Source: a virus (Duplodnaviria > Caudoviricetes). Taken from it: a DNA stretch of 64,000 nt. A program made the translations under genes and the position numbers. The stretch lies in the IMG/VR virus record IMGVR_UViG_3300045015_000053; one strand, 5' to 3'. The notes under the pieces were generated by a model. That model ran no database searches. It saw only the letters and a program-made list of their open reading frames with translations, and was not told the origin of the DNA. Positions 22,290 to 60,088 of this stretch are shown piece by piece; the stretch's first letter is position 1; each line of letters opens with the position of its first letter.

Positions 22290-23291
22290 ATGACGGACTT
22301 CGACGTGATCGTCCCGCACAAGTCGGTCAGCAGCGAACGCCTCGGCGAGTGCTGTGAGATCATGATTCGCGGCAACGACGCTTACCGCAAGTGGATGCCG
22401 AACATCACCCGGCGTCGGAGTCGCGAGTGCCGCGACCTGATCGTCAAGGGCAAGAGCGACGAGGTTCTGAAGTACATTCCGGCCGAGCGGCACGCCGAGT
22501 TCAAGGCCGATCTGCCGGTGATCTGCAACGTCGAGTCCGTGATGAACGACTTGCTCGGCCACCACGTCAGGATGATCGTCAAACTCGCAACCCGCTGGTC
22601 AAAGACCAACGAGGGCGAGAAGTCGGCGAAGCGGTCCTACTACGACGGCGGCGATCTGGCGAGCGAAGGGTTCATCGCCATGTTCGACGCCATCCGCAAC
22701 TACAACCGGGACCACATCAAGTTCGTGACCTACGCTTGGACCACTGTGAACCGCCGGATGTTCGCCTCCCTCATGGCGACTTCCCCCATGTCTTGCTTCA
22801 CGCGGCAAGAGCAGAAGATGCTCAAGAACGCCGTCAAGAAGCAGTTGGAAACCGGGAACCGCAATCTGGCGGATGCGGTCGCGGGCGGTGTCGTGACGGG
22901 CGACCAAGCCGCGCTGGTGCGGGAAATGCTCACGATCAAGGTGGTTCTGGCGTCCCGTCTGGAAGAGTCGATGGGACCGGACAGCGAGGGGTTCGACTTC
23001 ACCAGCATGCGGGAAGGCGTCTCTACCGACCGTTCGGGGCAGCCCAACGATGCTTGGGGGTTGTACGACTTCATGGAACGTGCGGAACTGGACGACTGCG
23101 AGCAGGACGTGCTGTTGTCGAGCCTCACGCCCTTCCGGGGCTGGCAGGCCGAATGCTCCACGCGGCACAACCTGTCGCGAACCTCCGTCCACAACATTCT
23201 GCAACGGGCGTGCAACAAGATTCGGCACGTTGCCGGTCTGCGCGAAACCGACGCCAACATCGCCCAGTTGATGGTGTCGATGTCTGACTAA
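22290..23291 (+). CDS. sigma70-family RNA polymerase sigma factor
   Basis: region 2: HVRMIVKLATRW..DLASEGFIAMFDAIRNYNRDHIKFVTYAW; region-4-like C-terminus. Confidence 0.75.
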   Translation: MTDFDVIVPHKSVSSERLGECCEIMIRGNDAYRKWMPNITRRRSRECRDLIVKGKSDEVLKYIPAERHAEFKADLPVICNVESVMNDLLGHHVRMIVKLATRWSKTNEGEKSAKRSYYDGGDLASEGFIAMFDAIRNYNRDHIKFVTYAWTTVNRRMFASLMATSPMSCFTRQEQKMLKNAVKKQLETGNRNLADAVAGGVVTGDQAALVREMLTIKVVLASRLEESMGPDSEGFDFTSMREGVSTDRSGQPNDAWGLYDFMERAELDDCEQDVLLSSLTPFRGWQAECSTRHNLSRTSVHNILQRACNKIRHVAGLRETDANIAQLMVSMSD

Positions 23292-26120: not shown

Positions 26121-26921
26121 ATGCCCGCCAAGAAGCCCGCCAAAGAAGTCGATCCGCTGGACGATTTCCGCAAGAAGATGAACCGTGAAAACCGCGCCAA
26201 CAAGAAAGCGTTGGATGGCCTGAAGGCCAACAAGCACTTCAATGCTGAGACGGTCATGGCCGAGCTTTTCGCCGGTCTGGAATGCGGCTCCCTTCACATC
26301 GGTTGGGCGTTAGACAAGTTCTGGGGTCTGAAGGTCGCGGAGACGATGCCCAAGCTGCAAAAGATCTACGACGAGGCCGTGAAGCGGAACTACACCCGCG
26401 AGAACAACCTGTCCTTCAACGACATGGACGACAAGCTGTTCGTCATGCCGCACGACCAGTATTGTGTCCTCTGCCACGAGTTGCAGAGTTCCAACTACGT
26501 CTACGTCTGGGAACGGAACGCGCCGTCCAAGTTCCAGAAACTGCACGTCCGGCGTTACTTCGACGTACTGAAGGTCGAAGACAAGTTCGACAAGCAGGAA
26601 GAAGCCGAGTTCAAGAAAAAGGTTCGTGAGAAGGGCAAGCGTGCGGGGATCATCGCCGCGCAACGGTTCGTTGAGAACTACGCCGACGACTACCCGGAAA
26701 ATCCGTACCCGAAGCGGCTCTCGCTGGACAGCTACATCAAGGCCGGCTTCGAGATGAAGTACGGCGACTGCCGTGACGAGGGCTACATCCTGACGTGGGA
26801 CCAGTTCCGCGACTCGGTTGATCGGTCGTACTACGAACACAGTCGGATCGAAGCAGTCCTCGACTGCTACATTCCGAGCATCGAATACGCACTCTTTGAA
26901 GAAGGGCGGGAAGAAGAATGA
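26121..26921 (+). CDS. hypothetical protein
   Basis: ORF track. Confidence 0.55.
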   Translation: MPAKKPAKEVDPLDDFRKKMNRENRANKKALDGLKANKHFNAETVMAELFAGLECGSLHIGWALDKFWGLKVAETMPKLQKIYDEAVKRNYTRENNLSFNDMDDKLFVMPHDQYCVLCHELQSSNYVYVWERNAPSKFQKLHVRRYFDVLKVEDKFDKQEEAEFKKKVREKGKRAGIIAAQRFVENYADDYPENPYPKRLSLDSYIKAGFEMKYGDCRDEGYILTWDQFRDSVDRSYYEHSRIEAVLDCYIPSIEYALFEEGREEE

Positions 26922-27691
26922 AGCTCACATTCGCCGGTGTCGGTTCGGCCTTCACCGACAGCCGTTACTGGCAATCGAACATGTTCTTCACCTCGAAGCA
27001 GGGGAAGAGATTGATGATCGATTGCGGCGGTGATGCCCGGTTCAGTTTCGGCGAACACGGCGCTACCAACCGCAACATCGGGGATTGGTCGGATGGCGTT
27101 TACATCAGCCACCTTCACGCCGACCACATCGGCGGGCTGGAGTGGTACGCCTTCTGCACCTACTTCAATCCCAACGTGTCGCGGCCCAAGTTGTTCATCG
27201 TGGACGAACTGGTCGATCCGCTGTGGGAGAGCTTGAAGGGCGGGCTGGCCTCGCTGGAAGGCAAGGTCATGACGCTCGAAGACTTCTTCGACGTGCGTGA
27301 GTTGCACATCAACAGCAGCTTCGTCTGGGAGGAACTGAACTTCACCCCGATTCAGACCGTTCACATTATGAACGGCATGGGGATCGTGCCTTCTTACGGG
27401 TTGCTCGTCAAAGAAAACGGCAACCCCGCGACCGCGTTCATCACCACGGACACGCAATACTGTCCGCGCCAGATCGAGCGATTCTACGAACGCTCCAGCA
27501 TCATCTTCCACGACGCCGAAACCGGCGCGAGACGGAGCGGCATTCACGCATACTACGACGACCTCAAGACGTTGCAAGCCGAACACAAGGCGAAGATGTG
27601 GTTGTATCACTACAACCCCGACCCGACCCAAGAAGCCGAGGCAGACGGGTTCAAAGGGTTTGTGAAAAAGGGACAAACCTTCGAGATCTAA
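26918..27691 (+). CDS. MBL-fold metallohydrolase, RNase Z/cAMP-phosphodiesterase-like
   Basis: LMIDCG; SHLHADHIGGL (HxHxDH); FITTDTQ; IFHDAE; WLYHY. Confidence 0.85.
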   Translation: MKLTFAGVGSAFTDSRYWQSNMFFTSKQGKRLMIDCGGDARFSFGEHGATNRNIGDWSDGVYISHLHADHIGGLEWYAFCTYFNPNVSRPKLFIVDELVDPLWESLKGGLASLEGKVMTLEDFFDVRELHINSSFVWEELNFTPIQTVHIMNGMGIVPSYGLLVKENGNPATAFITTDTQYCPRQIERFYERSSIIFHDAETGARRSGIHAYYDDLKTLQAEHKAKMWLYHYNPDPTQEAEADGFKGFVKKGQTFEI

Positions 27692-39769: not shown

Positions 39770-41479
39770 ATGGCACTTTCCACCAACATCTTCGACGCGA
39801 AGTGCAGCCGTTGTCCGACCACGTTCGGTGCGAAGCAAGGCTTCTACGAGAAGACCCAGAACGGGATTGTCTTCTACTGCAAGAACTGCGCTGCCAAAGT
39901 CGGCGAAAGCCCGGCTTCCGTTCCGGTCAACAACACCCGGCGGCTGACCGCCAACTTCGAGATTTTTACCCCGAAGGAACCGGACAACCTGCCCATCATC
40001 CGTGCGTTCCCCGGCGCTCGCTGGACCGGCCAGTGCTGGTCCGTTAGCCGCGAAGAGGGGGACCGCGTCCGCGTTCTCGAACTTGCCGACCGCCTCGGCC
40101 TTCAGGTCGATCCGAGCCTCCGCACCATCAAGTTGTGCGGGCGGGCCGAGGCCGCTAAGACGCGCGGGCTGTACCCGTTCCAAGTCGAGGGCGTCGATTT
40201 CGTCAGCAAGAAGGCTCACGCCCTTCTCGGCGATCAGATGGGACTCGGCAAGACCGCCCAGTCGCTCATGTCGTTGGAAGAAAGCGACCGCGTTCTGGCG
40301 GTGGTTCCCGCGAGCCTCAAGAACAACTGGCGGGCCGAAATCCTGCTGTGGCGTCCAGAGTTCAAGATCAAGATCATCAAGAAGAAAACCGACTTCGTTC
40401 TGCCGGTCGCGGGCGAAATCGTCATCATCAACCGCGAATTGCTCCCCGACTACCTTACTCCCGTCAAGGTCGAGGGCGAGAAGTACCCCGTTGCCAAATG
40501 GCCCGAAGGGGTTCGGCAGTACGTCGGCGAGATTCTTGTCATTGTTGACGAGGCTCACAAGTACAAGAACTGGCAGGCCAAGTGCAGCAAGAAGATGGGG
40601 CAGTTGAGCCGCGCGGCCCGAAAGGTTATCGCGTTGACCGGCACCCCGCTGCTCAACAAGCCGGGCGACCTGTTCGGCGTCCTGTCGAGCGTCGGCATGG
40701 TGGGCGAAGTGTTCGGGACGTGGAACCGCTTCAAGGAACTGTTCAACGCCCAAGACGGCCAGTACGGACTCGAATGGGGCATGCCCAGTCCCGAAGTGCC
40801 GGAACGTCTCCGTCGCGTCATGCTCGCCCGCCGCCGCGAAGAGGTGCTTCCGAACCTCCCGCGCAAGCAATACGTCGATCTGCCGGTGGACAACACCAAG
40901 TCCATCGACAAGCAGTTGGACGCACTGGACAAGGTCCACGGCAAGTTGTCCCGCGAAGGCGGCAGGCTGCCGCCGTTCCAAGACTTCAGCCGCATCCGCG
41001 CCGAGATCGCCGAGGCCCGGATTCCCGAAATGCTGGAGTTCGTGGAGAACTGCGAGGAACAGGAAGAACAGCTTGTGGTGTTCTCCTACCACCTCGCACC
41101 GCTGGATCAGTTGGCGATGCGTGAAGGGTGGGCGGTCATCAGCGGCGATACGCCGCTCGATCAGCGGCAGCAGATCGTGGACGCCTTCCAGCAGGGACAC
41201 TTGAAGGGCGTCGGGCTGACGATTCAGGCCGGTGGCGTGGGTCTTACCCTCACGGCCGCGAACAAGATGCTGTTCGTGGACATGGACTGGGTTCCGGCGA
41301 ACAACTGGCAGGCAGAAGACCGCATCTGCCGTATCGGGCAGGAAGCTGACAAGGTGACGATCTATCGGATGGTCAGCAACCACCCGCTCGACCGTCACGT
41401 TCACACCCTGCTCGCCACCAAGATCGCTTTGATCGAGGCGGCGACGTTACAGCAAGCCAAAGCGGTATTGCCCACATGA
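39770..41479 (+). CDS. SNF2/HARP(SMARCAL1)-like helicase with N-terminal Zn finger
   Basis: LGDQMGLGKT; IVDEAH; LTGTP; AGGVGLTLT; QAEDRICRIGQ. Confidence 0.9.
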   Translation: MALSTNIFDAKCSRCPTTFGAKQGFYEKTQNGIVFYCKNCAAKVGESPASVPVNNTRRLTANFEIFTPKEPDNLPIIRAFPGARWTGQCWSVSREEGDRVRVLELADRLGLQVDPSLRTIKLCGRAEAAKTRGLYPFQVEGVDFVSKKAHALLGDQMGLGKTAQSLMSLEESDRVLAVVPASLKNNWRAEILLWRPEFKIKIIKKKTDFVLPVAGEIVIINRELLPDYLTPVKVEGEKYPVAKWPEGVRQYVGEILVIVDEAHKYKNWQAKCSKKMGQLSRAARKVIALTGTPLLNKPGDLFGVLSSVGMVGEVFGTWNRFKELFNAQDGQYGLEWGMPSPEVPERLRRVMLARRREEVLPNLPRKQYVDLPVDNTKSIDKQLDALDKVHGKLSREGGRLPPFQDFSRIRAEIAEARIPEMLEFVENCEEQEEQLVVFSYHLAPLDQLAMREGWAVISGDTPLDQRQQIVDAFQQGHLKGVGLTIQAGGVGLTLTAANKMLFVDMDWVPANNWQAEDRICRIGQEADKVTIYRMVSNHPLDRHVHTLLATKIALIEAATLQQAKAVLPT

Positions 41480-48283: not shown

Positions 48284-48661
48284 ATGGAACTCAAGGCGCT
48301 ATACACCGAAGGCAACAAGCCCGAAAGCGTCGATAAGGCCGAGGAAACAAGAAAAGTCTTCCTCGACGCCATGAAGACTTTTCTGGCGATGCCGACCAAT
48401 CCGGTTCTTAGCGCCGAGCAGAAGAAGAAGATCACGGACAAGGTCGAGTGGCTGCTGGCGAACGAGTTCCGGCCGACGTTCTGGCGAAATCTGGACTGCC
48501 AACTGAACCTCCGGGTCATCGAAGGCGTCGTTCAGATGACGCCGAAGCTGCTCGTGTGGGCAGAATACCGGAAACAGTCCGTTCCGAAGGTGAAGGAAGG
48601 CCAGACCATCCCTCACGCCAAGAACGGGAAAATCATCAGAAGCGCAAAGGGACTGTCATGA
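48284..48661 (+). CDS. hypothetical protein
   Basis: ORF track. Confidence 0.5.
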   Translation: MELKALYTEGNKPESVDKAEETRKVFLDAMKTFLAMPTNPVLSAEQKKKITDKVEWLLANEFRPTFWRNLDCQLNLRVIEGVVQMTPKLLVWAEYRKQSVPKVKEGQTIPHAKNGKIIRSAKGLS

Positions 48662-49263
48662 AGAACGTCTACAAGGTCAACGGGCTTCCGTTCTGGAACG
48701 CCAACGAGATTGCCGAACGCGAACACCTCGTTCGCGTTTTCCCTCTTTACCTAGAAGAGTTTTTGCGAACCGAGAACGCCGCGTGGCACTCGCACCGCAT
48801 CGAAGCTCCCGTCCTGACGCCGCACGACCACATCAACCCCAACTACACTGATCAGGACGTGTGCAAAGTGTACGACCGCCACATCGAGAACGGCGAGCCG
48901 CACAAAGCCTACTTCGAGTGGGCGGTTCGCGGCTGGCTCTCCGACGAAGCACACCGCTACCCGATGGGGAAAGGCGCTAAACCCGAATACTCCTACTGGG
49001 ACGGCCAGAAACTCAGCTACGTCGAAGCCCGCAAGAAGATCTACGCCCCGCTGTACGCCGGCGCGGTCGAACACACCGACGCCTTCAAACGCCTCAAAGA
49101 GATCTACGAGGCCGAGAAAGAGATCTGGCTCTGGGACTTCGACGCCTACGACCACCACAAGCTCGGCATGACCTACGAGCAGGTGATCAATTCGGAAACA
49201 AGAAAGATGGGCCACTGCTTCGTCCTCGGCATGCTACTCGAAAACCAACGGGTGTGGGAATGA
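48658..49263 (+). CDS. probable chimeric ORF (class II aaRS-like N-terminus plus unrelated phage domain)
   Basis: NGLPFWN..EI..RE..WHSHRIEAPVLTP then abruptly KVY..YFEW..RYPMGKG..YVEARKKIYAPLY..WDFD. Confidence 0.4.
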   Translation: MKNVYKVNGLPFWNANEIAEREHLVRVFPLYLEEFLRTENAAWHSHRIEAPVLTPHDHINPNYTDQDVCKVYDRHIENGEPHKAYFEWAVRGWLSDEAHRYPMGKGAKPEYSYWDGQKLSYVEARKKIYAPLYAGAVEHTDAFKRLKEIYEAEKEIWLWDFDAYDHHKLGMTYEQVINSETRKMGHCFVLGMLLENQRVWE

Positions 49264-51118: not shown

Positions 51119-51496
51119 GACGAACTCCTTTAGTTGGGCCGGATCAGTCTACACCGCCACAACCAGTACCGGAGGCCGAACAATGAATCAAGACCAACAA
51201 CCGCCAGCTACAGACCCGCACGCCCCGAAACACCTGAAACCGCTCCGCATCTTACGCAGAACCCCGAACAGATCACCGAGGAACTCAAAGCGAGAGCCTC
51301 GAAGGTCAAGAAGAAGATCGCACGACTCGAAAAGCTGAAACGGGTCAGCCACGAAGTCATGCGGATGCGGTGTTGCGCGGCTCCCTAGTTAAGAACAAAC
51401 TAGCAGAGCGTCATGCCAAAAAAGTGATTTCCCCAATGGGAGATGCCATTTTGGTCTATACTGACATCCTCGTGATTAAGGGCGAGGGCGACAGCA

Positions 51497-52972
51497 GTGA
51501 AGAACTTCAACGTGGCAACAGATTCCTTGTTCTTTGTCGCCGAGGGCGATCAAGAAAAGCTCGTTTCTGCTCTCGACATCGAGAAGAACGGCAAGAAGTA
51601 TTCACAGTTTCTTGGCTCGCCAATGCAACAGGCGACCTACATGAACGCCATCGTCGCCATCCTCAGCGATTTGAAGGCCAATGGGAACACGTCCCAATAC
51701 GACATGTCCACCTTCATGCAGCAGCCCGACTTGTCAACCAAGTACAACATCTACTTCCCGTGGAAAACGCTCGCGAAAAACGATGTGCATCGCGAGATCG
51801 GCTATTGCAGTTCACGGATTCCTGTAGGCCAAAACGAAGCGTATCGTTTTAACCCGCACCCACAAGCTTTTGAGTACGAGCTTTGCCAACGATGCTGCGC
51901 ATATGGTTTTTTGGAAAACATCCTGTTTGCCCGTAGTGGTGGGCAAGGATGGAGTCCTGCTTTGGCCGGTGAAAACCCCCTGTATGTCTGGAAGACCGGG
52001 GAGAACCTCGCCGACTTCATTCAACTGAACAGCGGCCAGCCTGAAAAGGCCGGGTGGGACGTTCTGAAAACCCTCGGTACTCCAGAATCTCCCAACTTGC
52101 TAACGCGCAATCAAACATACACATACAACCCAAGACTGATGGAATGTGTGTGGAAGGCACCGCTACAACCTTGCTTTTTGTGCGGCGACTGTGAAATGCC
52201 TCATGGCAGTGAAATGTATTCTCGTGGGATCAATACGAAGTTTACCAAAGAGTCACTTTTGAAAGGCTTTCAGAAGAAATGGCACGGGTTCAAACCGACC
52301 GAGAAGGAACATTTCTTAATTGTCCCGTGCGAAGATGATAGGAAACTTGTGCGTAAAGACGGCAAACGCATGATCGCTACGGCAGACAACAAAACTATTG
52401 CCGAAGCCGCCTACGCTCAATTTGGTGACAAATGGATCGCAATCGGAATGATGGTTGAAAGTGTTAAGAAGTCCTCGATTTTCGAGCAGTATCTCGTGAC
52501 CCCTGACACTTGCCCGCAGCGAAGGAAACAGCCCCCGCACAAAAACTTCAAGAAGAGGCTTGACGGCTCAAGGCCCAAAGTCGTTGTTCCAAAACCGATC
52601 ATCTCTACAGCGGAGGTAAGCCGCGAGATGATCGCAAAGGCCGTCGCATGCCTGAGCGAGATCCCCCAAGAAAAGCTCGCAATGTTACGCAACGCCTGTT
52701 ACGGCGCGAGGCATGAAAGCGATGCCGAGGTGTTGGATTTTCTGGACGGTCTTTGGCGGAAGGTTTACCAGAAGACCCGACTGACTTTCAAGAGGGTCTT
52801 TTTTCAACTGGTTCTCGCCTACGCCTGCAACCCGCGCAGTCGCAAGAGCGGTTACCTTGCTAAACATTTGGCTCGCAACGTTCAGCTATTGGCACAATCG
52901 CCCTGTTCTGCCGTTGTGTTCGGCGAAGTCGATTGGTACTGTGTTTTCTCAACCATGTGTGGAGTGAAGTAA
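51497..52972 (+). CDS. cas8e: type I-E large subunit Cas8e(Cse1)-like with probable C-terminal Cas11(Cse2) fusion
   Basis: first gene of cas7-cas5-cas6 operon, FNVATDSLF start; C-terminus LAMLRNA..LVLAYACNP..LARNVQLL..EVDW resembles Cse2. Confidence 0.6.
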   Translation: MKNFNVATDSLFFVAEGDQEKLVSALDIEKNGKKYSQFLGSPMQQATYMNAIVAILSDLKANGNTSQYDMSTFMQQPDLSTKYNIYFPWKTLAKNDVHREIGYCSSRIPVGQNEAYRFNPHPQAFEYELCQRCCAYGFLENILFARSGGQGWSPALAGENPLYVWKTGENLADFIQLNSGQPEKAGWDVLKTLGTPESPNLLTRNQTYTYNPRLMECVWKAPLQPCFLCGDCEMPHGSEMYSRGINTKFTKESLLKGFQKKWHGFKPTEKEHFLIVPCEDDRKLVRKDGKRMIATADNKTIAEAAYAQFGDKWIAIGMMVESVKKSSIFEQYLVTPDTCPQRRKQPPHKNFKKRLDGSRPKVVVPKPIISTAEVSREMIAKAVACLSEIPQEKLAMLRNACYGARHESDAEVLDFLDGLWRKVYQKTRLTFKRVFFQLVLAYACNPRSRKSGYLAKHLARNVQLLAQSPCSAVVFGEVDWYCVFSTMCGVK

Positions 52973-52973
52973 A

Positions 52974-54485
52974 ATGGCTACGCTCAGAAATGTGTTCCTC
53001 GGCATGTCGCAAATTACGCACTACGGTGCGGGACTTCCGAATCGCGACAAGAGCGGTGTGTACAAACATATCCCCGTGGGCAACGTGGATCGCGGGATGG
53101 TGTCGCCACAGTGCCGCCGTCAGCACGTTCGTGAAGAGATCGTCAAGCGTATGCCGCACCTCGAACTTTCCGACCAGACGCGGCACTACCCAGACATCCT
53201 CATCCCGATGTTGACAGACACGTCCGATAAATTCGGCGGCGTCGCGTTGACCGAATCGGAAGCAAATGTGGTCATGCAGTATTTCCGCACCCTGCTACAG
53301 AAGAAGACCCGCGAAACGAAAAACGGTCGTTCAAACGCCACCTACAAACATTGGCCGGACTCCATGCGACTGGTGGCTGCGGCATGTCGAAAAATCAAAG
53401 AGAATGGCGGGCAACAATGGTCCGACATTTCCACCCCGTCATCCACCATCGTCATCGAGAACATTCTCGCCGATCTGGGGCTTGAGAAACAGGACAAAAA
53501 CGATGACGATGATGATGACAAGAAAGATCCCGAACTGGAAGCCACTCGCAACCGAATCCTCAAAGAACTCCCCGGCCGCATGGAGGCCGCGAAGATCGGT
53601 TACGATCAAGGTAACGAATTGAAGGCACTCGTTATCGCCATCCGCGATAACGTGCCGCAAGAGCAGCCGGAACAAGCGGAGAAAATCGAGAAGCCCAACC
53701 AGAAGCCTCAAGCCGGTGGCAAGAGGGGTGCCAAGAAGACCGTCGAAACCAGCGGACTGGATGAAATTCGCGATAATTTCAAGAAAGCCTTGCTCGCAGA
53801 GACGAGCAAAATCAAGGGCAAGAAAATGCTTCGGCTTTCTGACTGGTGTGTGCCGCCATTCGACGTAGCCCTGTTCGGCAACATGCCCAACGAGAACCTC
53901 CACCGGCAGGTTACGCCCGCCATGAACAACACGGCGGCTATCTCAGTCAACCCGTTGGCCCCGGTCACCGTTTTCAATACCATCGTTGATACCAAACGGC
54001 CGGAATCGAACATGGTGCCGGATCAGAGCTACATGTACGACGCCGTTATGTACTCGTTCGACATGCTTGACTCCAACCAGTTGTTCCAGAACATGGAGCG
54101 AGAGGCCACGGTCGCAGAAGTCGAAGCACTGATCGCGTCGTTCATCGAGTCACTGCCCGGTGCCAAACGCGGCACCTCGGCGATCAATTCGCCGCCGATT
54201 CTCGTATCAATCGTGCTGTCGGAGTACAACCAACTGTGTTGCGAACGCGCCTTCGTAGAGGCAATCAATACGCAAACGGATGATGTTTCACGCATCGCCA
54301 CCGAACGGCTGTACGGTTTCATGCAGAAGAACCAAGAACAGTGGGAACCTCTCGATACGTTCGTCTACTCGGTCGATCCCGTACCAGAGAAACTCAAAGC
54401 CCGAACCTACCGCAACACGCGGAAGTTCGCGCGAGCCGTCGCCGAACGCTACGTTGAACTGCGTTGTAGCGTGACCAAGAAGTAA
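52974..54485 (+). CDS. cas7: type I-E Cas7 (Cse4/CasC) with large insertion
   Basis: LPNRDKSGVYK..G..RGMVSPQCRR..RE; DVALFGNM; AISVN; DAVMY; LPGAKRGTSA. Confidence 0.8.
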   Translation: MATLRNVFLGMSQITHYGAGLPNRDKSGVYKHIPVGNVDRGMVSPQCRRQHVREEIVKRMPHLELSDQTRHYPDILIPMLTDTSDKFGGVALTESEANVVMQYFRTLLQKKTRETKNGRSNATYKHWPDSMRLVAAACRKIKENGGQQWSDISTPSSTIVIENILADLGLEKQDKNDDDDDDKKDPELEATRNRILKELPGRMEAAKIGYDQGNELKALVIAIRDNVPQEQPEQAEKIEKPNQKPQAGGKRGAKKTVETSGLDEIRDNFKKALLAETSKIKGKKMLRLSDWCVPPFDVALFGNMPNENLHRQVTPAMNNTAAISVNPLAPVTVFNTIVDTKRPESNMVPDQSYMYDAVMYSFDMLDSNQLFQNMEREATVAEVEALIASFIESLPGAKRGTSAINSPPILVSIVLSEYNQLCCERAFVEAINTQTDDVSRIATERLYGFMQKNQEQWEPLDTFVYSVDPVPEKLKARTYRNTRKFARAVAERYVELRCSVTKK

Positions 54486-54538
54486 AACGAAGACCACATT
54501 TCCCGATTTATCGGGAGTCACCAATAAAGGTCCAAGAC

Positions 54539-55597
54539 ATGAGCGTCATCAAACTGTTTTTGGCCGGCTCACGACAGTGTTACGGACTCGAAAATATCGG
54601 CCAAACCAAGCCGTGGCCGACCAAAAGCGCCGTCGCTGGCATCGTGGCAAATGCGCTCGGCCTCGACTACAAAGACACGACCGAATTCCTCAAAGATTTC
54701 AATAAGACCAAAGTACACGTTCGCGTGGACTCTCCCGGTTCTATCTGCGAAGACTTCCAAGTCGCCACCGGGTTTGGTGATGCAAACGGCCGCGCCCGCA
54801 CAATGAAGGAAAAGGTTGCTTACGTCGATAACGGGGTCGTTAAAGAATATAACGCCCCGAAAAAAACCATGTTTACACCCACATACCTCTGCGATGCGAG
54901 GTTCATGGTTTTTATCGAAGGCCGACGCGAGGTTCTCGAAACTTGGGTCGCCGATCTCGAACGGCCCAAACGTCCCCTTTATCTCGGACGGTCGTCATGC
55001 CTCCCAAGTGAAAACATCTTCGTGTCCCACGAGGACCGAGACATTCAGGAACTGATCGAGAACAGTGTACTCGAACTACTGCCGGGAACCAAATACGAGG
55101 GTCAAAAAACACTCAATACGATCATGGAAGTCCAGAGTGGCGGGTACTTCATCCGAGATGTCGTTCTTACGTTCAAACCGAGCCACACACACGGTTCACG
55201 AATGGTTGTTCAAAAGCCAGTGGTCGTGAAAAATGTTGTCCCGTGGCTGCAAGGCGTGGGCCTTTCCGGGCGAAGAAATCGTCCGAGTAAAAAGGCACGC
55301 GATGAACGCCTTTCATATGACAACAATCGTTGCGTCGAGTGCGGGGCAGTCAAGGACGTGCAATATCACCACGTCACATACGAGAACTATGGGTGTGAAA
55401 AGCTCGAAGACGCCCGAACCCTCTGCGTCATTTGTCACCGCGCCTGCACGCTTCTCAACAGTCAATTCGGTCACTTTGATCCGAGGGAACTGCCAGAAGA
55501 AGATTACGAGGTCTACCGGAACGTGCGTGACCAGATCGCGGTAGAACATATGAGGATTTTGGAATCAAGAAAGCAACTGCCGAAGTTGCCCTACTGA
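54539..55597 (+). CDS. cas5: type I-E Cas5 fused to C-terminal HNH nuclease
   Basis: PTKSAVAGIVANALG; VRVDSPG..DFQ; YLCDARF; PLYLGRSSCLPS; then CVECG..YHHVTYE..E..D..TLCVICH. Confidence 0.9.
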   Translation: MSVIKLFLAGSRQCYGLENIGQTKPWPTKSAVAGIVANALGLDYKDTTEFLKDFNKTKVHVRVDSPGSICEDFQVATGFGDANGRARTMKEKVAYVDNGVVKEYNAPKKTMFTPTYLCDARFMVFIEGRREVLETWVADLERPKRPLYLGRSSCLPSENIFVSHEDRDIQELIENSVLELLPGTKYEGQKTLNTIMEVQSGGYFIRDVVLTFKPSHTHGSRMVVQKPVVVKNVVPWLQGVGLSGRRNRPSKKARDERLSYDNNRCVECGAVKDVQYHHVTYENYGCEKLEDARTLCVICHRACTLLNSQFGHFDPRELPEEDYEVYRNVRDQIAVEHMRILESRKQLPKLPY

Positions 55598-55638
55598 TTC
55601 AGCCCATTCCACTATGTCCCATTTTTTGGGAGACTCTT

Positions 55639-56253
55639 ATGTATCGATGCTTCCTGAAGGTCAAACCCAGTGCCATGATGTCCAGACTGTACGACTGGCA
55701 CGGGTGGTATGGAATCATTCTCAACGGGTGGCAAGACACTAGGTTTCATCAACAGCCTCGGTCAGAAAATCGATCCATCCTGTACCGGGTCGAGAACGAA
55801 CAGATTGTCGTTCAAAGTACAGAACGGCCAGATCAGCCAATCCGCGCACCAGAGATCGCCAGTTGTGTGATCGAGGAGTATAACCCGAAACCATTCGGGA
55901 AGACCAACATCGAAGTGGTCATGGCCGTTTACACGCGGGGCAAGCGGACCAAAGGCGTTGCGCCGCCCGGAGTCAGAAAGAACCCCACTGCCGGACTATA
56001 CCTGCCACTCGAAAAGCGACAGTTCTTCCTCCGCAAAATGCAAGACAACGGGTTCGTCGGCGACATCATTTCGCTATCGGTCGGCCAGACGTTTTCGTTC
56101 TCTTCACCTCACGGTCAAAGTAGAATTGAACTGCCGGTGGCAAACTTCAAAGCCACAGTGGACATCAAGGACACTAACGCCTTCCTCGACATGATGAAAC
56201 GAGGCGTCAGCCGCAACAAAGATTCTGGCTGTGGACTTATCGTTCTGCGATAA
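55639..56253 (+). CDS. cas6e: type I-E Cas6e (Cse3)
   Basis: ILYRVE..IVVQS..PD; C-terminal G-rich loop GVSRNKDSGCGLIVL. Confidence 0.8.
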   Translation: MYRCFLKVKPSAMMSRLYDWHGWYGIILNGWQDTRFHQQPRSENRSILYRVENEQIVVQSTERPDQPIRAPEIASCVIEEYNPKPFGKTNIEVVMAVYTRGKRTKGVAPPGVRKNPTAGLYLPLEKRQFFLRKMQDNGFVGDIISLSVGQTFSFSSPHGQSRIELPVANFKATVDIKDTNAFLDMMKRGVSRNKDSGCGLIVLR

Positions 56254-56309
56254 TACGCGAGAGCAGAGGTGTTGAACACTTCCTCTGAATTCGATCTTTG
56301 AAAACTTAG

Positions 56310-56363
56310 ACAATTACGCCACGCGAGCTACGCACAAGGCAACCCCTCGCGTGGCGTAATTGT
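56310..56363. promoter_or_regulatory. 18-bp perfect inverted repeat in CRISPR leader
   Basis: ACAATTACGCCACGCGAG-N18-CTCGCGTGGCGTAATTGT. Confidence 0.8.
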
Positions 56364-56397
56364 AGTACCGATAATAGTTCGATTTGTGGCCATGAGC

Positions 56398-57294
56398 CTC
56401 AAACCCTCAATCCCATTCATTGGGAGTTGTCATCTTACCAAGCTCGATGTTCAAGTGACGCCCGCAGACCTCAAACCCTCAATCCCATTCATTGGGAGTT
56501 GTCATAATTGCTCTTTGAGACGCAGCAACTTCGAGACTTCCGACTCAAACCCTCAATCCCATTCATTGGGAGTTGTCATGGCGAGCGGCTGCTTCGGGTG
56601 ATCCAGAAGAAAGAACTCAAACCCTCAATCCCATTCATTGGGAGTTGTCATCCGATCTTCATGGGCAACCTTCAGGAAGGCACAACCCCGCCTCAAACCC
56701 TCAATCCCATTCATTGGGAGTTGTCATCGCTCGGTGCTGGTCTGCGAGTCGGACGGTGAATGCTCAAACCCTCAATCCCATTCATTGGGAGTTGTCATAC
56801 GAAGGACGGCAAAGGGAAACTTGGCATGGTCCGGCTCAAACCCTCAATCCCATTCATTGGGAGTTGTCATCTCTGGGTTCTGGTCCGGCGGCAGCAGCTT
56901 CTTCATCAAACCCTCAATCCCATTCATTGGGAGTTGTCATCCGTACCCGACCGCTTTGGAAACAAGAATGCCCGCCTTAATCCCTCAATCCCATTCATTG
57001 GGAGTCGTCATAGCAGCTCAGTGTCGATGGTCGCGAGTTGCGAGTCCGCTCAAGTCCCAATCCCATCTTTTGGGAGTTGTCATCTGGGAGCCGCAAGCCG
57101 ATGGGTAGAAGACCAGCAATTTTTGTAACTAATCCCATTTCGTTCGGAGTCGTCATAAGACCGACAGATGGGCAGCATGACTGGCTGCAAATTCAATCCC
57201 ATTTTTTTGTTGGGAGTTGTCATGACGGGTTCGATGGCCTGGATTGCGCTGATGGCACACTTCTCAAACTCGTCCCATTCATTGGGAGCTACCT
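56398..57294 (+). CRISPR. CRISPR array 1: 13 repeats (36 nt), 12 spacers
   Basis: CTCAAACCCTCAATCCCATTCATTGGGAGTTGTCAT at 56398, 56470, 56544, 56616, 56692, 56763, 56835, 56905; degenerate copies at 56976, 57049, 57121, ~57187, 57263; first ten spacers 34-40 nt. Confidence 0.97.
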
Positions 57295-57921
57295 GACTAA
57301 CTCAATCACCTTCGGCGGCACCTTTTCCGAAACGTAATAGGACGGCCACCTGCTGTCCTCCGAACCACGCCCGTCATTCTGCAACTTGTCTTCCAACACC
57401 GACCGCTTCACCTTCAACACCACCACCGGCGACGGCCGATCCGAATTGTGTTCCTCATGTTCCTCCACCCTCTGCTTCCAGAACTTCACCCCGCCCTTCT
57501 CGGCAAAAAACACCTTGCCCGAACTGTAGTCCGAGTAGTTCGTAAACTGCTTGACTGCCGTAGGAGACAACCCGTTCTTGCGAATCAGCGGCAACCGCGA
57601 TTTCGTCGTAACGTGGTAAAGGTAATCGTCCTTACCTTCCTTCTGAATGGCCTCGCGGTCCAACCTAGCGGCCAATTTCTCGTGATCGACGTTCCTGTAA
57701 CGCTTCGCCAGTTCGCGGTAAACGAACGCGGCGTAACCCTCGGACACGCCGAGCTTTTTGCCAATCTCCGCAATCGACAAACGACCCGTCGCAGCCAGTT
57801 GCTGCATCGCCCACGGCTTGATGGAAGGCTCAATCGAGGTGTACCACGCTTCCCACGCCTCCCACGGGTCGCCGGCAGAAGGCGGAACACTCATTTCTAG
57901 CCACAGTTTGAAAGTCGTCAT
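57289..57921 (-). CDS. ADP-ribosyltransferase-fold (KptA/Tpt1-like) protein
   Basis: YLYHVTTKSRLPLIRKNGLSP; KVFFA; VVVLKV; YYVSEKVPP; starts MTTFKLWLE. Confidence 0.55.
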   Translation of the reverse strand: MTTFKLWLEMSVPPSAGDPWEAWEAWYTSIEPSIKPWAMQQLAATGRLSIAEIGKKLGVSEGYAAFVYRELAKRYRNVDHEKLAARLDREAIQKEGKDDYLYHVTTKSRLPLIRKNGLSPTAVKQFTNYSDYSSGKVFFAEKGGVKFWKQRVEEHEEHNSDRPSPVVVLKVKRSVLEDKLQNDGRGSEDSRWPSYYVSEKVPPKVIELVR

Positions 57922-57936
57922 GACCCTATTTAGGGC

Positions 57937-57965
57937 TTGACGCACATCAACAAAAAGCCTAATCT
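57937..57965 (+). promoter_or_regulatory. sigma70-type promoter
   Basis: TTGACG-N17-TAATCT. Confidence 0.55.
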
Positions 57966-57999
57966 GACTTCCACACAGAACAACAAAAGGAATTCCGAC

Positions 58000-58552
58000 A
58001 TGAGCCGCTCCGTCATCTGCCGCTGCCGCCACGAAGACTGCGGGCAAGACACCTTCGTCGCACACATTGACGACAACCGCCTGCTGCCCCGAATGCGGAC
58101 GGCAACAGTCACCCGACGTACTCGGCGTCCCCAACGGCCTGTACAAGCACTACAAGGGCAACACCTACCGCGTCACCGGCTACGGTCTGCTCACCGACCC
58201 CGAAACGCGAGTGGTTTACTACCACAACATCGAGACGCCCGACCAACTGATGGCCCGGCCGACTACAATGTTCATCGAGAACGTCAACGGTCAGCCCCGG
58301 TTCCAATACATCGGCGGCGAAAGCCCCAACACGTTCCCCGCCCTCGTGAAAGCCGAACTGGAACGCGCCCGCAGACTGCATCCGGGCAACCAACGCTGCC
58401 TGCACGAAGCATACGGCGTTCTTCAGGAAGAAGTTGACGAGTTCTGGGATCTCGTCAAATTCAAGAAACCCGACCCCAAGAAGGTACTGGAAGAACTGGT
58501 TCAGGTCGCTGCTATGGCACAGAGAAGTGCCGAAGATCTGGAACTCACATGA
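58000..58552 (+). pseudogene. frameshifted Zn-ribbon + DUF1653 + MazG-like protein
   Basis: ATG 58000 CRCRHEDC frame; next frame CCPECG, GLYKHYKGNTY (DUF1653), EAYGVLQEEVDEFW..EELVQVAAMA (MazG-like). Confidence 0.6.
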
Positions 58553-59104: not shown

Positions 59105-60088
59105 AGACCAATGGCTTAGGCAGGTGCAGGCAAGGTTGTATGCGATTCGCTTACGGTCTGCAAGCTATCGGTCAAGACCAATGGCTTAGGCAGCAGTCAG
59201 CCTTGAGGACTACGAAAGAACGCATGTCTGCAAGCTATCGGTCAAGACCAATGGCTTAGGCAGATTCCGCTCATCTGGTTCCACTTGGGGTATATCGAAT
59301 CTGCGAGCTATCGGTTACGACCGATAGCTCAGGCAGGAGGGTTGGCGACGGCAGGCATCGGCGCTCTGCGTGCTATTGGTTACGACCAATCGCTCAGGCA
59401 GCCGTCCGTGTCTGGGATTGCGACGACGTGCAGCATCTGCGAGCTATTGCTTACGACCAATGGCTCAGGCAGTAGCTGATGCCGAGTTCATCGGCAACCT
59501 GCGAGTTATCGGCTAAGGCCAATGACTCAGGCAGGACGACTACCTCGATCTGACGCCACTTCTGCGAGTTATCGGCTAAGGCCAATCGCTCAGGCAGAAC
59601 CGCTGCCTCGTGTTGCCAATGATGACCGCGACCCTGCGTGCTATTGGTTACGACCAATCGCTCAGGCAGCCCCAGTCGAACAGGACGTTGGCGACGGCGT
59701 TCATCTGCGTGCTATTGGTTACGACCAATGGTTCAAGCAGATTCGGCAGCATTACGGATCTTTTCGATGAACCTGCGAGCTATCGGTCAAGACCAATGGC
59801 TCAGGCAGAACTATAAGCCCGTGTCGCCTGTCTGCGAACCATCTGCCACGGCTCATGGTTCAAGCAGGTTCAAGCAGGACATCCTGCTGTTCGACTCTCT
59901 GACCGCAAACGACTGCGAGCTATCGGCTAAGGCCAATCGCTCAGGCAGTGTTGGATGTATGCGAAGTCGCCGTTGCTCGCCTGCGGGCCATCGGTTGCGA
60001 CCAATGGCTCAAGCAGATCTTGAAGTTCGCGTCATTGCATTTGTTCTGATACCTGCGAGCCATCGGTTACGGCCAATGGCTCAAGCAG
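59105..60088. CRISPR. CRISPR-like array 2: 14 full + 1 partial 36-nt hairpin repeats, spacers 23-45 nt
   Basis: consensus CTGCGAGCTATCGGTTACGACCAATGGCTCAGGCAG at 59158, 59228, 59301, 59366, 59437, 59499, 59562, 59634, 59705, 59773, 59832, 59913, 59981, 60053; unique spacers. Confidence 0.85.

Follow-up and report, generated by a model that had tools for sequence, protein, structure and literature searches.

Can a Cascade complex encoded by a phage cut DNA on its own, without Cas3? The question is raised by a CRISPR locus in IMG/VR record IMGVR_UViG_3300045015_000053, a 64,000-nucleotide stretch of Caudoviricetes DNA, the whole of which is termed the window here. The cas genes and array span 51497–57289 on the plus strand and comprise a cas8e-like gene, cas7e, cas5e::HNH, cas6e, a leader, and a CRISPR array. 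The four open reading frames (ORFs) are tightly packed and co-directional, with lengths of 491, 503, 352, and 204 amino acids. This anatomy had been proposed from the letters alone (the sequence-only reading) and is borne out by matches of the ORFs to Pfam, TIGR01868, PADLOC, and profile searches, together with the array. The sequence supports a type I-E-derived Cascade that is Cas3-less within the window and carried on a phage-like giant element. Taking the analysis as a whole, the locus probably encodes a functional, Cas3-independent, self-contained RNA-guided DNA nuclease that works like the Cas5-HNH complex of Candidatus (Ca.) Cloacimonetes. To our knowledge, a single representative of the type I-E HNH-Cascades has been characterized so far.

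The Cas5-HNH Cascade as a kind is already published (Altae-Tran et al. 2023, PMC10910872; structures 2024–2025). Members of the family cut double-stranded DNA precisely without Cas3, and most Cas5-HNH loci have no cas3 (PMC10910872). The locus described here matches this family, as the sequence-only reading had held. What is novel is the huge-phage carrier lineage, the divergent clade, a Cas11-free four-gene layout with a Cas8 of normal size, an enlarged Cas7, and a long repeat with variable guide length, with the proviso that a prior mention in a 2022 Cell survey of virus-encoded CRISPR systems is possible. The locus shares the Cas5e, Cas6e, Cas7e, and Cas8e families with canonical type I-E (casABCDE, cas3, cas1, and cas2 of E. 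coli K-12), as well as a repeat hairpin followed by an 8-nt 5′ handle. It is nevertheless not a canonical type I-E system, which would have a Cas3 helicase-nuclease, two free Cas11 subunits, and Cas1-Cas2; the locus has an HNH domain on Cas5, a repeat of 36 rather than ~29 nt, spacers of 34–40 rather than 32–33 nt, and no Cas3, Cas11, or Cas1 found in the window.

The carrier is best read as a huge phage of lake water. The exact Cas5-HNH protein occurs on contigs of up to 475,914 bp, including a 401,933-bp contig of the Joint Genome Institute (JGI; L001, 3300044294 Ga0438296_000013), and the locus was recovered from 13 metagenome runs of lake water that belong to 13 studies and date from 2018–2025. 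An operon of the same four genes, intact and in the same order, is present on two further metagenome contigs, L004 and L010, with a cas8 of 486–506 codons, a cas7 of 486–488, a cas5-HNH of 343–355, and a cas6. Across the three loci the Cas proteins are 27–46% identical (42–46% between L004 and the window). An SNF2 helicase, encoded at 39770–41479 (+) in the window, 483–2189 in L004, and 4990–6747 in L010, is 63–64% identical across them, and L004 and L010 are therefore taken to be related phages. The recurrence of the intact operon indicates that the system has been inherited and kept intact in a related phage lineage while evolving faster than the backbone. The helicase lies immediately upstream of cas8 in L004 and L010, with ~10 kb of other genes between the two in the window; it looks like a conserved backbone gene and not a substitute for Cas3.

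The Cas5-HNH fusion and its family

The cas5e::HNH gene (54539–55597, +) encodes a Cas5e core and a C-terminal HNH domain in a single ORF of 352 amino acids. Residues 6–176 match TIGR01868 (7e-24, above the curated cut-off), and PF09704 is also matched. The Cas5 core occupies residues ~1–225 and is followed by a linker and by the HNH domain at ~255–320 (nucleotides ~55301–55498). The best solved-structure match is the Cas5-HNH of Ca. Cloacimonetes (8yb6_A and seven related entries, E 5e-21), with an unbroken alignment over residues 20–311 that covers core, linker, and HNH. H310, D324, and H333, named as key residues of the solved enzyme (PMC11794572), align to H278, D291, and H300, as counted along the alignment. 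The zinc ligands are C265/C268 and C296/C299, so that both CxxC pairs are kept. Among 32 family members, C265, C268, H278, Y281, C296, C299, and H300 are invariant in the alignment, and H277, T304, D314, and P315 are conserved in at least 90%.

The sequence-only reading had doubted nuclease activity owing to the threonine in the motif CHRACT, where a final histidine was expected. This doubt falls away, because the threonine is kept in at least 90% of the 32 members and the active solved enzyme reads CHDACT; the threonine is the family norm and not a missing histidine. From its residues, there is no reason to doubt that the HNH domain is active.

The residues also bear on whether the complex cuts at all. 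Huge-phage CRISPR systems described earlier resemble this one in residing in giant phage genomes, in their compact arrays, in lacking adaptation genes, and in including a type I variant without Cas3 (PMC7162821). They differ in kind, being Cas-phi and a variant of type I-C that has a different helicase, and the term HNH is absent from the text of that paper. The systems among them that lack a nuclease are proposed to act as repressors (PMC7162821), and the present complex might likewise only bind, mainly repressing transcription or blocking replication, with an HNH domain that is inactive or only nicks without Cas11. In the characterized complex, contacts between Cas11 and the HNH are needed for full activity, and mutating the Cas11 residues that touch the HNH linker abolishes cleavage (PMC11794572), and no separate Cas11 is encoded here. 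A dead domain would not be expected to retain all catalytic and zinc residues, yet these are kept in the window and in its three closest relatives at 35–46% identity, and the threonine is normal for the family. A binding-only complex is thus quite unlikely, and a DNA-cutting Cascade remains the preferred reading.

The resemblance to the Ca. Cloacimonetes system (structures 8yb6, 8yha, 8zlu, and others) extends over a Cas5e-linker-HNH with bound zinc and the same His/Asp/His, over the Cas8e, Cas7e, and Cas6e partners, and over the lack of cas3 at the locus. Among solved structures, its Cas5 and Cas8 match the window proteins best, with an identity of roughly 27–32% for Cas5-HNH. The two systems differ in composition. 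The Ca. Cloacimonetes system has five genes, a separate Cas11, a Cas7 of 378 amino acids, 32-nt spacers, and adjoining Cas1-Cas2, whereas the phage version consists of four genes, none of them for a separate Cas11, and has a Cas7 of 503 amino acids, a 36-nt repeat, 34–40-nt spacers, and no adaptation genes nearby in the window.

An exhaustive profile-free search returned 132 proteins with E values no higher than 1e-10. Among the cluster representatives listed (50% identity), at least 35 are Cas5 proteins of 290–470 amino acids with the motif C..C ... HH.TY ... ED.R..C..CH.A.T. In a quick maximum-likelihood tree of the Cas5 part only, built from 36 Cas5 proteins with an HNH and 40 plain Cas5e proteins, one clade with 99% support unites 31 of those that bear the HNH, the Cloacimonetes type among them. 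The phage Cas5 lies outside this well-supported main clade. It pairs with P0005, with P0006 and P0013 adjoining, and all four branch apart through weakly supported nodes. A single clade of all HNH-bearing Cas5 proteins is not rejected by the approximately unbiased test (p 0.27). The HNH and the motifs downstream of it align across the whole family, and we favor the view that shared HNH-specific motifs (CH.A.T and DP) point to one origin of the fusion. A single origin is likely but not proven, and all Cas5-HNH proteins are read as one family, of which the phage type appears to be the most divergent branch found. No Cas5-HNH relative was found in IMG/VR, and no similarity to the locus or array was found among INPHARED phages.

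Cas8, an enlarged Cas7, and the place of Cas11

The large subunit is encoded by the cas8e-like gene (51497–52972, +), which has a GTG start and 491 codons. Alone, the window protein gives a weak match to PADLOC Cas8e (E 5e-3). A profile of the three orthologues matches 8yb6_J, the Cse1 of the solved Cas5-HNH Cascade, at E 3.6e-8, and the orthologue from L010 scores above the Pfam threshold for CRISPR_Cse1. The protein is laid out as a Cse1-type N-terminal domain (~1–335), a basic linker, and a helical C-terminal domain of ~115 residues (~376–491). An AlphaFold2 model built from the three sequences was unusable (mean predicted local distance difference test score, pLDDT, of 37).

The lack of a free cas11 ORF at the window operon directs attention to this C-terminal domain. 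Its ~115 residues match Cse2 weakly by hhalign (E 0.04 and 0.17), and a control comparison with the C-terminal domain of Cas8e is also weak (E 0.28 and 0.67). There are weak co-linear echoes of the Cse2 motifs L..LR, LW, and, near the end, DW, the last of which is invariant in a small Cse2 alignment. Searches of Pfam, the PDB, and the Atlas with the domain gave nothing informative. An internal start for a Cas11-like product was considered at Met378, which has GGAGG 11 nt upstream, and was rejected since it is not conserved in L004 or L010.

Fusions of Cas8 and Cas11 are mentioned among Cas5-HNH loci (PMC10910872). The P0017 locus, which carries such a fusion, resembles the phage type in its four-gene layout without free cas11. 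The true fusion of the P0017 type has 632 amino acids and matches both CRISPR_Cse1 and CRISPR_Cse2 of Pfam, whereas the phage Cas8 has 491 and no Cse2 match in Pfam. The range of 486–506 amino acids in the phage type is that of an ordinary two-domain Cas8e. From the sequences, a Cas8-Cas11 fusion and a loss of Cas11 appear to be equally good readings of the phage-type Cas8. Of the oddities listed in the sequence-only reading, two hold up, namely a Cas7 of increased size and a repeat unlike that of type I-E, which it exceeds in length; the subunit fusion is not demonstrated.

The backbone subunit, encoded at 52974–54485 (+), has 503 amino acids compared with 363–378 in solved type I-E complexes. 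Its identity is given by PADLOC Cas7e (8e-33) and by PF09344 (6e-30), the latter match falling in two stretches. Likewise, the Cas7 profile matches E. coli CasC (9e-9) and 8yb6_D (5e-5) in the flanks only, with residues ~8–55 corresponding to CasC 4–51 and ~286–425 to CasC 156–300. Alignment with Cas7e of normal size places ~125–130 extra residues between ~95 and 285, a region that holds an acidic and lysine-rich (D/K/E-rich) stretch. An AlphaFold2 model (mean pLDDT 55) renders the insert mostly as helices with a disordered segment. The extra residues fall in the region that we take to form the “fingers” of E. coli CasC. Nothing informative about the insert emerged from the Atlas, Pfam, or PDB. 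The locus of one other family member combines a Cas7 of 472 amino acids with no called cas11.

Array, guides, and proposed mechanism

The cas6e gene (55639–56253, +) encodes a pre-CRISPR RNA (pre-crRNA) endonuclease of 204 amino acids that matches PF08798 (2e-12) and PADLOC Cas6/Cas6e (3e-13). The C-terminal glycine-rich loop is conserved in the phage type, as is a histidine six residues downstream of the position of the catalytic His20 of E. coli CasE. From these features, processing of pre-crRNA by the phage-type Cas6 is likely.

A leader of 144 nt (56254–56397, +) separates the cas6 stop from the array and is placed on this side because the repeats at the other end are decayed. Its sequence holds an inverted repeat, perfect over 18 bp (56310–56327 and 56346–56363) and with 18 nt in the loop, which could serve as terminator of the operon, as attenuator, or as a site for a regulator; promoter and terminator scans gave background levels. 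The array (56398–57289, +) contains 10 recognizable 36-nt repeats at 56398–57083, seven of them identical, and nine spacers of 34–40 nt with a mean guanine-plus-cytosine fraction of 0.59, close to the 0.56 of the phage. Three decayed repeat remnants follow, extending to ~57289, and the decay grows with distance from the leader. A shorter version of the array in L002 was set aside as a variant, being probably a collapse of a 31-mer assembly.

Each repeat folds into a 5-bp stem (UCCCA/UGGGA) that closes a loop of 5 nt, and the stem is trailed by exactly 8 nt, GUUGUCAU. This is the geometry of Cas6e-type repeats and implies that an 8-nt 5′ handle is left after cleavage. The L004 repeat is 37 nt long with a different, 7-bp stem, and it shares the 3′ end ...UGGGAGUUGUCAU with the window repeat. 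The handle and the stem base are thus the conserved parts of the repeat, given that this end is kept despite the change of stem.

A mechanism may be proposed from these parts. The array would be transcribed from the leader, and Cas6e would cut at the 3′ base of the hairpin to yield a crRNA with the 8-nt 5′ handle, a guide of 34–40 nt, and a 3′ hairpin on which Cas6 would stay. Cas5-HNH would cap the handle, and the enlarged Cas7 would coat the guide in six or seven copies, as the spacer lengths require. Cas8e is expected to read the protospacer-adjacent motif (PAM) and to open the R-loop. At the PAM-distal end, the linker-tethered HNH would then cleave both strands just beyond the protospacer, like that of the Ca. 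Cloacimonetes complex, so that Cas3 would not be needed. Presumably the helical C-terminal domain of Cas8, the Cas7 inserts, or both fill the position that Cas11 would occupy along the “belly” of the complex. This substitution matters because the contacts of Cas11 with the HNH linker are what cleavage depends on in the solved complex.

A more specific proposal, which is tentative and on balance somewhat doubtful, is that a lineage of huge lake-water phages keeps a distinct Cas11-free HNH-Cascade in which the Cas7 insert, the Cas8 C-terminal domain, or both replace Cas11 and position the HNH, and in which guides of 34–40 nt are tolerated. If so, the Cas11-free form would represent a second architecture by which a type I nuclease works without Cas3, and the phage would turn it, with a fixed guide set, against competitors or its host. 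As precise genome editors built of several subunits, HNH-Cascades attract interest. A deeply divergent four-gene version that lacks free Cas11 and accommodates guides of differing length would reveal the contacts on which the placing and activation of the HNH really depend, and could offer a different engineering scaffold. It would also extend what huge phages are equipped with by a nuclease-competent type I system, which would explain how they can interfere with DNA in the absence of Cas3.

Several observations weigh against a functional, self-contained nuclease. Cas11 is required for full activity in the characterized complex, and the operon has no separate gene for it. His20 of CasE aligns to a tryptophan in the phage-type Cas6, by which the chemistry of crRNA processing is not assured. 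The gene search covers a 64-kb window of a ~476-kb genome, the rest of which may hold cas3, cas1, cas2, or cas11. The far end of the array is decayed, and no protospacer was found in INPHARED, in IMG/VR (searched with four spacers, every sixth base left free), in the window, or in the related loci.

The scope of the gene search gives some room to a system that is incomplete by itself, with interference or guide supply depending on genes outside the window, such as cas3, cas11, or cas1-cas2, whether the host encodes them or the remainder of the 476-kb phage genome does. The claim of the sequence-only reading that cas3 and cas1 are missing agrees with the absence of any Cas1 or Cas3 Pfam family from the 35 non-redundant window ORFs of at least 230 amino acids; shorter ORFs, of Cas2 size, were not scanned outside the locus. 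PADLOC found only SNF2-type and IetA-type matches in the window, among 25 of 37 families listed. Within the DNA of L004 and L010, no cas3, cas1, or cas2 adjoins the operon. Bacterial-type members differ in gene content: L011 and L014 carry Cas1 and Cas2, the full set in L014 being a Cse1 of 450 amino acids, a Cse2 of 170, a Cas7 of 372, Cas5-HNH, Cas6, Cas1, and Cas2, and another such locus has a Cse1-Cse2 fusion of 632 amino acids, a Cas7 of 413, and Cas1. These bacterial members, together with the misfit of 34–40-nt spacers and a 36-nt repeat to the ruler of type I-E Cas1-Cas2, which hints at another former supply of spacers, speak for completion in trans. Against it stand the published loci, most of which lack cas3 and work without it (PMC10910872), the bare flanks of the L004 and L010 operons, the window search itself, and the lack of any array with the window repeat end among 185,579 species genomes. 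Completion in trans is accordingly unlikely, and a self-contained nuclease is the better account. A scan for two consecutive repeat 3′ ends had no match in IMG/VR. One match in GTDB and seven in JGI metagenomes proved to be tandem repeats of 39 or 68 nt without Cas homologues and were rejected as CRISPR arrays.

How such a nuclease obtains its guides is suggested by the age of the array. The leader-proximal spacer 1 is already present in contigs of a 2018 run, which break at every repeat and show spacer 1 only, and there is thus no sign of recent spacer acquisition. The phage most likely uses a fixed guide set, given that no cas1 or cas2 lies nearby and that the array looks stable over 2018–2025. 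The targets are likely to be competing mobile elements or host genes. Self-targeting has no counterpart in the window, where no match to a spacer exceeds 12 exact bases. Spacer 3 matches part of the L010 SNF2 gene (19/21), a match that was rejected because its full-length score of 22/36 is at chance level, the best anywhere in the window being 23/36.

The same array could be taken for a relic nearing loss that does nothing, as there is no adaptation module, the last repeats have decayed, and nine good spacers are left. Decay of the system as a whole is difficult to reconcile with four intact ORFs whose order is preserved in two or more divergent related phages, with seven identical repeats, and with the recovery of the phage and its locus from lake-water runs up to 2025. 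A mere remnant is therefore very unlikely, and the locus more probably encodes a working nuclease.

Neighboring genes and a second array

Most ORFs of the window have no family match. Those with a match encode an Apyc1-type protein, a sigma-70-like factor, HNH endonucleases, methyltransferases, and the SNF2 helicase. An ORF of 285 amino acids on the minus strand (57289–58146) is convergent on the decayed end of the array. It has weak helix-turn-helix matches (E 4e-3 to 2e-2) and may encode a regulator; on L001, the gene is called with 258 amino acids. Weak matches to DUF6939, which may be due to chance, occur upstream of the cas operon at 48448–49260 (+) and directly downstream of cas6 in the locus L006 (1879–2454).

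A second array lies at 59157–59955 and consists of 12 copies of a 37-nt unit, spaced by 59–81 nt. The copies are 64–86% identical, and each folds end to end as a hairpin (consensus −15.9 kcal/mol, z −3.6). This unit is unrelated to the cas-linked repeat and is not obviously a substrate of the window Cas6e.

Two of the matched genes lie farther from the locus. A protein of 333 amino acids (22290–23288, +) matches sigma-70 region 2 (PF04542, 2.9e-7), and it would seem that the phage supplies a sigma factor of its own. A protein of 257 amino acids with a metallo-beta-lactamase fold (26918–27688, +) matches the anti-Pycsar protein Apyc1 (PF23023, 78 bits compared with a cut-off of 50), which marks it as a phage counter-defense gene.

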